Shown piece after piece: positions 61,546-62,290 of a stretch of 64,000 nucleotides of DNA; position 1 is the stretch's first letter; the number at the start of each line of letters is the position of its first letter. A program made the position numbers and the translations under genes. The DNA comes from a phage: sequence record QB031382.1; one strand, given 5' to 3'. Under the pieces are notes generated by a model, which had not been told where the DNA came from, searched no databases, and saw only the letters and a list, made by a program, of their open reading frames with translations.

Positions 61546-61641
61546 AATATTTTCTTGACAAACTTTGCTTAACAGTGTAATATTGTAAACATGGTCTCCC
61601 ACCTTTTCTGGCGGCTCAGGTGTAAAAGAAAGCCACCCAGT

Positions 61642-61807: not shown

Positions 61808-61921
61808 AATTTATATTTTTAAATGCATAAATCATACAGATAATGACATTGATATTTATCGTCGTTTATACTAGTCACTAACTGCTCGAAAATCAGTGTC
61901 ATTATCAGTGTAATTTATAAA

Positions 61922-62012
61922 GGAGGGTAGGGAGCAATGGTGCTCAAGCGGTCTTGAAAACCGTCCCGTTGAGGATGACTCGATGATGGTTCGATTCCAT
62001 TACTCTCCGCCA
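61922..62012 (+). tRNA. tRNA-Ser(UGA): tRNA-Ser (anticodon UGA), long variable arm
   Basis: Acceptor GGAGGGT/ACTCTCC with one GU, loop CTTGAAA, T-loop TTCGATT, encoded CCA. Confidence 0.75.
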
Positions 62013-62110
62013 CATTGTTGACCTTGTAATTAAGCGAAAGCCGGAAGCAGAACCGGATTATCAAATGTTACAGTCGTCATCGCCGACTAGCCACATGGTC
62101 AACATATTGC

Positions 62111-62207
62111 GCTAGGTAAGCCCTTTGGCAAGGGCGAGGATTTTTAATCCTGAAAATAGACGCGGTAGTCGTTGAATACATAGGTGGTTCGATTCCATCA
62201 CCTAGCA
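62111..62207 (+). tRNA. atypical tRNA-like gene, identity unresolved
   Basis: Perfect acceptor GCTAGGT/ACCTAGC, D-arm and T-arm (TTCGATT), but the anticodon region is a 6-bp hairpin AGGATT/AATCCT with UUU loop and about 30 extra nt; 97 nt. Confidence 0.4.
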
Positions 62208-62214
62208 CCTTTTT

Positions 62215-62290
62215 GCTGATGTAGCACAATCGGTAGTGCAATTGATTTGTAATCAATAGGTTGCAGGTTCAAGTCCTGCCATCAGCACCA
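62215..62290 (+). tRNA. tRNA-Thr(UGU): tRNA-Thr (anticodon UGU)
   Basis: Acceptor GCTGATG/CATCAGC, stem ATTGA/TCAAT, loop TTTGTAA, T-loop TTCAAGT, encoded CCA. Confidence 0.8.

Follow-up and report, generated by a model that had tools for sequence, protein, structure and literature searches.

A conserved tRNA-like gene in an rV5-like coliphage points to an undescribed family of L-shaped, tRNA-derived phage RNAs

The 64,000-nucleotide (nt) stretch of phage DNA in sequence record QB031382.1 (hereafter the window, meaning the whole stretch that was analyzed) carries a tRNA-like element of 97 bases at positions 62111-62207 of the plus strand, continued by an encoded CC at 62208-62209. We are highly confident that this is a real, conserved and structured tRNA-like gene. 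Comparison of related sequences shows that it belongs to an undescribed family of L-shaped, tRNA-derived RNA genes that is selectively maintained. As to its role, we tentatively favor the reading that the RNA would act as a tRNA mimic in phage-host conflict, matured like a tRNA and, in this phage, imitating tRNA-Lys; taken as a whole, that statement is plausible but could well be wrong. The region around the element is 98-99% identical to rV5-like coliphages of the genus Vequintavirus (e.g., V5/rV5, FV3 and several BASEL phages), and the window comes from such a phage.

The two strands of the acceptor stem, GCTAGGT (62111-62117; positions 1-7 of the element) and ACCTAGC (62200-62206), pair perfectly over 7 base pairs (bp), as a first-pass annotation of this DNA had claimed. 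The 5′ strand is followed by AA (62118-62119; positions 8-9), with A8 in place of the near-universal U8, and by a D arm, GCCC-TTTGGCAA-GGGC (62120-62135), for which a 6-bp stem with the 4-nt loop UGGC is an alternative drawing. After an invariant G at 62136, which may be counted as G26 or as G27 in a G·G mismatch with 62152, the minimum free energy (MFE) fold and the Rfam alignment place an anticodon-like arm, AGGAT-TTTTA-ATCCT (62137-62151). This arm can be read as 5 bp with a 5-nt loop, as 6 bp with a 3-nt loop, or as 4 bp with the 7-nt loop UUUUUAA, which displays the triplet UUU. The variable region of 31 nt (62152-62182) consists of a 5′ linker, GAAAATA (62152-62158), an extra hairpin, GACGC-GGTAG-TCGTT (62159-62173), with 4 pairs here due to a C·U mismatch and 5 pairs in rV5, and a 3′ linker, GA-ATACATA (62174-62182), that reaches up to the T stem. 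About 16 of these nucleotides, 7 and 9 around the hairpin, are unpaired and conserved. The T arm, GGTGG-TTCGATT-CCATC (62183-62199), has a canonical T loop. The discriminator A73 and the following CC occupy 62207-62209; the terminal A is not encoded, and TTTTT comes next. The GCCC/GGGC D arm, the TTCGATT T loop and the roughly 30 extra nucleotides of the first-pass annotation are thus all present, the last as the 31 nt that separate the anticodon-like hairpin from the T arm.

Thirty-two distinct sequences of the element were extracted from related genomes and cut into tRNA-numbered segments, and 22 distinct cores of 73 columns were used for covariation analysis (alignment A5). The acceptor, D and T stems are paired at every position in 32 of 32 sequences. 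Across the 22 cores, standard pairs fill 99.0% of the cells and compensatory double changes occur at 13 of 22 pairs, whereas in a control with the 3′ partners slid by 1-3 columns pairing fell to 26-47% with at most two compensatory pairs. The covariation score was 0.49 as compared to 0.19 in shuffles. Within the acceptor stem all seven pairs are 100% paired in the family and five show compensatory double changes; three of the four D-stem pairs covary. The anticodon-like stem has four always-paired positions and a closing pair that is U-A, C-G, C·A or A·G; covariation is found at three of its five pairs, and its loop differs between lineages. In the T stem, pair 51-63 covaries, and phi92-like phages have compensatory substitutions at 49-65 and 50-64. 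Within its types, the extra hairpin varies in a compensatory manner as well (e.g., GEC_vB_MG vs. EspYZU15). RNAalifold recovered the cloverleaf independently from the raw alignment, with the D arm as 6 bp and a 4-nt loop.

Covariation extends to a tertiary contact. The canonical G19 is the second G of the D-loop GG (62128, position 18 of the element), and the elbow pair is G19-C56 in 22 sequences and U19-A56 in 10, with zero exceptions; the D-loop GG becomes GU exactly where the T loop UUCGAUU becomes UUAGAUU. This indicates that the tertiary elbow of the tRNA L-shape is preserved and, together with the pairing and compensatory changes in the stems, that the RNA folds as a tRNA L-shape. Unpaired positions are conserved as well. 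U14, U15, A20 and A21 of the D arm are invariant, A8 and the two G residues equivalent to 62136 and 62152 are present in 32 of 32 sequences, and position 9 is A or G. The 5′ linker starts with G and AAAA in all members, two of which carry one inserted U, and ATACATA is invariant in the 32 Vequintavirinae-type sequences, with AAATACGAAA at this place in phi92-like phages.

These observations bear on the three options that the first-pass annotation had listed, namely an unusual tRNA, a pseudogene or a tRNA-like mimic. In at least six phage genera and a second subfamily, compensatory substitutions have kept all four cloverleaf stems, the extra hairpin and the elbow pair intact, which contradicts the pseudogene, while the other two options both remain. 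A decaying, functionless tRNA pseudogene in a conserved cluster would agree with the abnormal anticodon arm, with the degenerate CCA end in Vequinta- and Avunavirus, with the loss of most of the element in phage V18, and with its exclusion from the six tRNAs counted by the authors of the rV5 paper (PMC3606486). It is nevertheless hardly credible, given 99% pairing and 13 compensatory pairs across lineages that differ in the length of the flanking spacers and in gene content, tertiary elbow covariation, conserved single-stranded motifs, and the occurrence of the element beyond Vequintavirinae, in another subfamily and an unrelated N4-like phage.

The window sequence by itself is also strongly structured. 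Its MFE is −33.4 kcal/mol, against −22.3 ± 3.1 kcal/mol in shuffles (z = −3.6; a value that none of 200 shuffled sequences reached), and the corresponding fold is a cloverleaf in which the anticodon position holds AGGATT-TTT-AATCCT, the hairpin of 6 bp with a 3-nt loop that had been noticed earlier. The Rfam tRNA model RF00005 scored 35.5 bits (E = 4.5e-5), above the gathering score of 29. Its alignment is obtained only with 26 nt inserted in the variable region, two anticodon-branch positions deleted and an anticodon stem of 4 bp displaying UUU, reproducing the anticodon that the first-pass annotation had obtained by forcing such a stem. ARAGORN reported 'tRNA-???' at 62111-62209 with a four-base anticodon (atcc), so that neither predictor returned a standard fold. 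We rejected the ARAGORN fold (stem ATTTT/AAAAT, 8-nt loop, 'atcc'), whose pairing other lineages, Avuna- and Seunavirus among them, do not conserve. For comparison, all six neighbors in the cluster exceed the noise of their respective best models by a wide margin; four of them score 60-80 bits on RF00005, far above the element, and tRNA-Ser (41.5 bits) and tRNA-Tyr (33.7 bits) are listed under the tRNA-Sec model RF01852.

Other known RNA classes did not fit. A match to RF01852 over the window element is not listed, the tRNA model winning within the clan; orthologs score 24-39 bits on RF01852, below its gathering score of 47, have 7/5 rather than 8/5 geometry and lack G73, and the window element has UUU and A73. 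ARAGORN found no tmRNA in the window, where the lone Rfam match to tmRNA_permuted (17 bits) lies over tRNA-Met/Pro. Rfam gave no match to YrlA/Y-RNA or mascRNA over the element. A hammerhead-like reading of CUGAAAA...GAA around the extra hairpin has a mismatched core by eye, and no Rfam ribozyme match was found at E ≤ 10. No other Rfam family matched the element at that threshold, and there is no Rfam family for it.

With respect to canonical tRNAs, the element has the 7-bp acceptor stem, a D arm with GG, a TTCGA-type T arm and the elbow pair. It lacks a canonical anticodon arm, i.e., a 5-bp stem and a 7-nt loop with U33 and a purine at 37 in 19 nt (26 to 44), it also lacks U8, and its variable region is neither 4-5 nt long nor a long arm that is mostly paired. 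Canonical tRNAs have 19 nt between the D stem and the variable region. This distance is 17 nt in the window element and in members with the loop AUCAA and 18 nt in those with CAUCCA, so the anticodon branch is 1-2 nt below canonical length in every member. The loop itself is UUUUA in Vequintavirus, UUAUA in Avunavirus, AUCAA in Henunavirus, phi92-like phages, an N4-like phage and several contigs, and CAUCCA in Seuna- and Mydovirus, with variants CCUCAA, CAGCCA, CCGCCA, CUUCCA and CCUCCA. Most orthologs have anticodon-like loops of 5, 6 or 8 nt. In most members A or C precedes the would-be triplet, leaving no U33, and the base after the triplet is always A. A branch that is this short and inconstant argues that ordinary decoding is not the conserved function.

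Immediately upstream of the element, Seuna- and Mydovirus genomes carry another unusual tRNA-like gene (L003, 1418-1494; L004, 1419-1494; L099, 926-1000; L002, 1419-1494; alignment A6). It has U1-A72 and G73-CCA, and its anticodon loops, ACGAUUC, AAGAUUC, ACAGAUCC (8 nt) and ACGAUA (6 nt), are without U33 and without a purine at 37. Depending on the phage, ARAGORN labels it tRNA-Ile(gat), tRNA-???(agat) or tRNA-???(ga).

The identity elements of the family also differ between lineages. U73-CCA is encoded in 22 of the 32 sequences, and A73 is confined to Vequintavirus. Glycine identity in Escherichia coli is set by U73, G1-C72, C2-G71, C35 and C36 (PMC9976931). Most members combine U73-CCA with G1-C72 and C2-G71, many with UCC or GCC in the loop, and the glycine set is present in most members; the Salmonella toxin TacT recognizes U73 and G71 (PMC9976931). 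We found no convincing similarity that would indicate descent from the phages' own tRNA-Gly. Lysine identity resides in the UUU anticodon and A73 (PMC9976931), and Vequintavirus alone combines the loop UUUUUAA with A73, so that the E. coli lysine set is complete there. The arm of the window element, G-AGGA-UUUUUAA-UCCU-G, matches E. coli tRNA-Lys at 11 of 17 positions (27-43), including all of 33-40, when the flanking G26 and G44 are taken as positions 27 and 43. The host sequence used as reference was found with 100% identity as annotated tRNA-Lys in each of the 5,426 complete genomes of E. coli. Canonical tRNA-Lys was not found in rV5-type phages (ARAGORN on the window; rV5 paper), whereas one is present in phi92-like phages and contig L106, where the element is of the AUCAA version.

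These properties raise the question of whether the Vequintavirus RNA is simply a functional tRNA-Lys(UUU) used in elongation, with an anticodon stem of 4 bp (G·G on top), the 7-nt loop UUUUUAA and a large variable arm, possibly resistant to anticodon nucleases. RF00005 passes its gathering score with exactly that reading, U33, A37, A38 and A73 are in place with lysine identity being UUU plus A73, BASEL and other GenBank records call the gene tRNA-Lys, and rV5 has no other tRNA-Lys. Anticodon stems of 4 bp are frequent and occur in 11% of bacterial tRNA-Lys(UUU) (PMC13092985), and the tRNA-Lys by which T5 counters PARIS is a precedent (PMC11464382). On the other hand, a branch of 17 instead of 19 nt would place the anticodon about one base pair too near the elbow, and the MFE fold closes the loop into the hairpin of 6 bp with three unpaired bases. 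Orthologs in sister genera carry UAU, AUCAA (with A33) or loops of 6 or 8 nt on the same scaffold, again suggesting that decoding is not what is conserved. Furthermore, decoding tRNAs are not known to have A8 or a variable region with 16 nucleotides that are unpaired and conserved. E. coli genomes have a median of six tRNA-Lys genes, which leaves no codon-supply argument. We therefore consider a working elongator unlikely.

The comparison of family members instead favors a mimic over an ordinary decoder, as judged from the short branch, the frequent absence of U33, the varying loop and the linkers, which decoding tRNAs lack and which are the best conserved parts outside the helices. In the mechanism that we propose, the element would be co-transcribed with the neighboring tRNAs, released by RNase P and 3′ trimming as for a tRNA, and finished at its 3′ end by the host CCA-adding enzyme; the tight packing with tRNAs and the encoded CCA point to this maturation route. 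The RNA would then be accepted by tRNA-binding proteins, yet would not be a normal substrate for translation. In Vequintavirus, the loop UUUUUAA and A73 would imitate host tRNA-Lys(UUU), and the RNA might be recognized, and possibly charged, as tRNA-Lys. Transfer RNA-Lys is a classic target of E. coli anticodon nucleases. Where the host deploys enzymes directed at tRNA-Lys, for instance anticodon nucleases like PrrC, RloC or PARIS, the element might bait them, compete with their target or replace it in a form that resists cleavage. Support for such a mechanism comes from the Lys-like loop with A73, from the concentration of change in the loop and the cassette-like exchange of the hairpin, from the dispensability of the element, and from the precedent of phage tRNAs that act against tRNases. 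Phage tRNAs are indeed known to counter tRNA-targeting defenses including PARIS, retron PtuAB and other tRNases (PMC11464382, PMC11555353, PMC10264068).

The tempo of evolution was examined among closely related genes. Three near-identical Mydovirus-type genes (L110, K54_rec1 and L114) differ solely at loop positions 2-3 (AU, CG and UU), and KE22 differs from NINP13076 at two loop positions and one stem position. Among six variants in Vequintavirus the loop is constant, and the changes lie in the loop of the extra hairpin, at position 9 and in the 7-66 pair. Change in the loop thus seems concentrated but not frequent. In phage V18 (L007, 1450-1548), tRNA-Tyr, tRNA-Ser and the 5′ two thirds of the element are deleted, and the 3′ 45 nt are fused after tRNA-Arg, which indicates that the element is accessory and dispensable.

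Several points weigh against the mimic. The decoy or stand-in role draws solely on resemblance and evolutionary pattern, and a decoy, as one RNA species, would have to prevail over a large pool of tRNAs. With a 4-bp stem and a 7-nt loop, the window arm has U33 and A37 and could decode, and 4-bp anticodon stems are common in bacterial tRNAs (PMC13092985). The CCA end is incompletely encoded in Vequintavirus and absent in Avunavirus, which could reflect a relaxation of selection at the 3′ end. CAUCCA, the loop shared by most sampled Seuna- and Mydovirus genes, was present in each of seven phages sampled additionally, so that loop diversification appears modest; an initial idea of strong loop hypervariability was tempered accordingly. 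Moreover, phi92-like coliphages, which infect the same host, carry the version with AUCAA and U73. Loop identity therefore does not simply track the host, which weakens the idea of host-specific loop tailoring. Finally, literature searches did not find a paper describing the element.

The variable region is the other distinctive part of the family. It measures 31-40 nt, with G-AAAA on the 5′ side, AAUAC(AUA) on the 3′ side, AAUAC being conserved in all lineages, and a hairpin between them that folds in every member but is of at least four unrelated kinds. One of these, termed type B, is found in five lineages with covarying stems and a conserved loop of 12 nt, GAAYUAACAGUA, and recurs on different scaffolds. 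The scaffolds (84 nt) of GAP31, BIS47 and KPP-1 are identical and that of 4MG differs by one loop base, yet there are four different extra hairpins among them. The hairpin of the KPP-1 type (loop GAACUAACAGUA) is found again on distant scaffolds, in Erwinia, N4-like and metagenomic phages. In sequence terms, this pattern suggests recombinational exchange of cassettes between conserved linkers rather than drift. Kissing of the anticodon-like loop with the loop of the extra hairpin (UCCA/UGGA, GCCA/UGGC), inspected by eye, is limited to a few Seunavirus members and does not apply to type B or Vequintavirus.

The conserved, purine-rich linkers leave room for a role of the junction itself. G-AAAA, AAUAC and the extra hairpin could form a ligand, cofactor or regulator for a phage or host protein, unrelated to defense, on an RNA that is perhaps aminoacylated and used off the ribosome. 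Outside the helices, the family is most conserved in the linkers while the anticodon-like loop drifts, the type B loop is maintained on covarying stems in five lineages, most members possess the E. coli glycine identity set, and T4 rnaC/rnaD and Bacillus cereus tRNA-Other (PMC3399842) are precedents. However, no candidate partner was found, comparison of the neighborhoods of several lineages revealed no protein gene that is consistently adjacent to the element, and free swapping of hairpins on identical scaffolds argues against one fixed, specific hairpin partner. Such a role is rather unlikely in our view. A bolder extension of the mimic, which we regard as distinctly doubtful, is a dedicated RNA anti-defense module in which a reprogrammable loop (Lys-like in Vequintavirus, Gly/UCA-like elsewhere) and an exchangeable hairpin would together form a high-affinity bait or inhibitor of tRNA-targeting immune nucleases or toxins, with the G-AAAA/AAUAC junction barring the RNA from the ribosome or providing an inhibitory contact.

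The element was compared with several known systems. Like class II tRNAs and tRNA-Sec, it has a cloverleaf with a 7-bp acceptor stem, D and T arms, a G18G19/T-loop elbow and a hairpin in the variable region; its D arm can be drawn as 6 bp with a 4-nt loop, as in tRNA-Sec, and some orthologs have a UCA triplet and are annotated tRNA-sup(tca). It differs by the branch that is 1-2 nt short, by A8, by the 7 + 9 unpaired conserved nucleotides, by the 7/5 arrangement, and by having A or U instead of G as discriminator. The bacterial tRNAs with 4-bp stems (PMC13092985) resemble the window arm if G26/G44 are treated as a 27·43 mismatch, giving a 4-bp stem 'unpinned at the top' and a 7-nt loop, but they keep nucleotide 26 and normal length, whereas the element misses one nucleotide per side.

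The T4 species 1 and 2 (rnaC, rnaD) are small stable RNAs with tRNA-like ends that are encoded in a phage tRNA cluster, a setting that the element, known from its sequence, shares. The T4 RNAs are longer (119-139 nt) and lack a complete cloverleaf, and inspection of the T4 locus showed no sequence similarity or shared motifs, so homology was rejected and the genomic setting alone is shared. B. cereus tRNA-Other, mascRNA and the tRNA-like domain of YrlA are likewise tRNA-shaped and handled by tRNA enzymes while not serving as ordinary adaptors, and the anticodon arm of mascRNA is also reduced; none has a sequence relationship to the element, and YrlA is circularly permuted relative to it. The phage anti-defense tRNAs, i.e., T5 tRNA-Lys against PARIS, T5 tRNA-Tyr against retron PtuAB and the mycobacteriophage tRNAs with altered loops, offer parallels in tRNA-Lys likeness, an altered anticodon stem-loop and loops that vary between near-identical genes (PMC11464382, PMC11555353, PMC10264068). 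Those are canonical decoders with point changes, whereas the element has a shortened branch and a large conserved insertion, and the likeness lies in sequence patterns. Non-canonical tRNAs, tRNA-like RNAs in phage clusters and anti-defense tRNAs are thus of a known kind; what is new is a family with a short branch, conserved linkers, a swappable hairpin and lineage-specific identity.

BLAST searches with the element and then with its relatives found it in about 190 Vequintavirinae-type phage records, covering Vequinta-, Avuna-, Seuna-, Henuna- and Mydovirus, and in one N4-like Salmonella phage, UTK0002. A search with the pattern of the 5′ half revealed a divergent version in 35 phi92-like Stephanstirmvirinae records (e.g., EmilieFrey, PHB05 and muut), giving about 225 phage records in total. 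Exact-pattern scans showed that viral contigs of IMG/VR and metagenomes also carry the element. There was no match in the 5,426 complete E. coli genomes, and a 21-base signature was not matched exactly in any of 185,579 bacterial and archaeal species, each represented by one genome; with these results a host or prophage origin was rejected. At least 18 GenBank records of 'Campylobacter phage' (MG0656xx) are 96-98% identical to rV5-like coliphages over the element locus; their host label is probably wrong, or the preparations were contaminated with coliphage.

Existing annotation is inconsistent. Among the GenBank records listed, the element is mostly unannotated and otherwise labeled tRNA-OTHER, tRNA-Lys (in BASEL and other records), tRNA-TERM/tRNA-sup(tca) or tRNA-???(atcc), or overlaid by a 'hypothetical protein'. 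ARAGORN as run detected it only in Vequintavirus. Predictors miss the element or label it inconsistently, and it is therefore absent from studies of phage tRNA function. Several phages that bear it are used in biocontrol of E. coli O157, Salmonella, Klebsiella, Cronobacter and Erwinia. If the mimic is correct, an RNA-decoy mechanism would be added to phage counter-defense; if the RNA decodes, the known structural limits of a functional tRNA would be stretched. Either way, annotation of these phage genomes should use one named family for the element, and V18, a natural deletion mutant, is ready-made for functional work.

In the window, the element is the fourth of seven genes that ARAGORN finds in a single cluster, in the order Arg(tct), Tyr(gta), Ser(tga), 'tRNA-???(atcc)', Thr(tgt), Met(cat) and Pro(tgg). 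The location between tRNA-Ser (61922-62012) and tRNA-Thr (62215-62290) given by the first-pass annotation was thus confirmed. A promoter scan found a sigma-70-type promoter, TTGACA-17-TAATAT, with 10 of 12 matches on the plus strand upstream of the cluster (61555-61583). The rV5 reference record, in which six tRNAs but not the element are annotated, labels the equivalent site 'P(tRNA)', and this promoter is the presumed start of a polycistronic transcript that would include the element.

Packing with neighboring tRNAs at 2-5 nt is found in every lineage, which could suit a cis-acting, tRNA-like punctuation mark that directs cutting of the polycistronic transcript by RNase P and a 3′ nuclease and has no function in trans. 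The element always lies within a few nucleotides of true tRNAs, and conservation of its helices is highest in the acceptor and T arms, on which RNase P depends. Yet the neighboring tRNAs are RNase P substrates themselves and require no helper, the covarying anticodon-like stem, elbow pair, linkers and encoded CCA would be unneeded, and the window element is separated by 98 nt from the upstream tRNA-Ser. Punctuation is accordingly improbable.

Two further readings of the locus were rejected. A terminator scan flags the D arm (62120-62135) and the T arm with the acceptor strand (62181-62204) followed by TTTTT as intrinsic terminators; this T-run occurs only in Vequintavirus and is probably just spacer before tRNA-Thr. 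Protein-coding potential is restricted to short antisense open reading frames of at most 59 amino acids that start with TTG or GTG and extend into adjoining tRNA genes, and the 'hypothetical protein' calls over orthologs in GenBank are not conserved.

The cluster also contains structured spacers. Between tRNA-Tyr and tRNA-Ser (61808-61921), a long imperfect hairpin forms around the inverted repeat GATAATGACATTGAT / ATCAGTGTCATTATC (MFE −26.7 kcal/mol, z = −4.6) and includes a sigma-70-like match, ATGACA-18-TATACT (61843-61872). The 98-nt spacer between tRNA-Ser and the element (62013-62110) has a closing stem of 8-9 bp, GUUGACC(U)/(A)GGUCAAC, and two inner hairpins (MFE −24.2 kcal/mol, z = −2.2), and could be a structured spacer RNA or the remnant of a tRNA.

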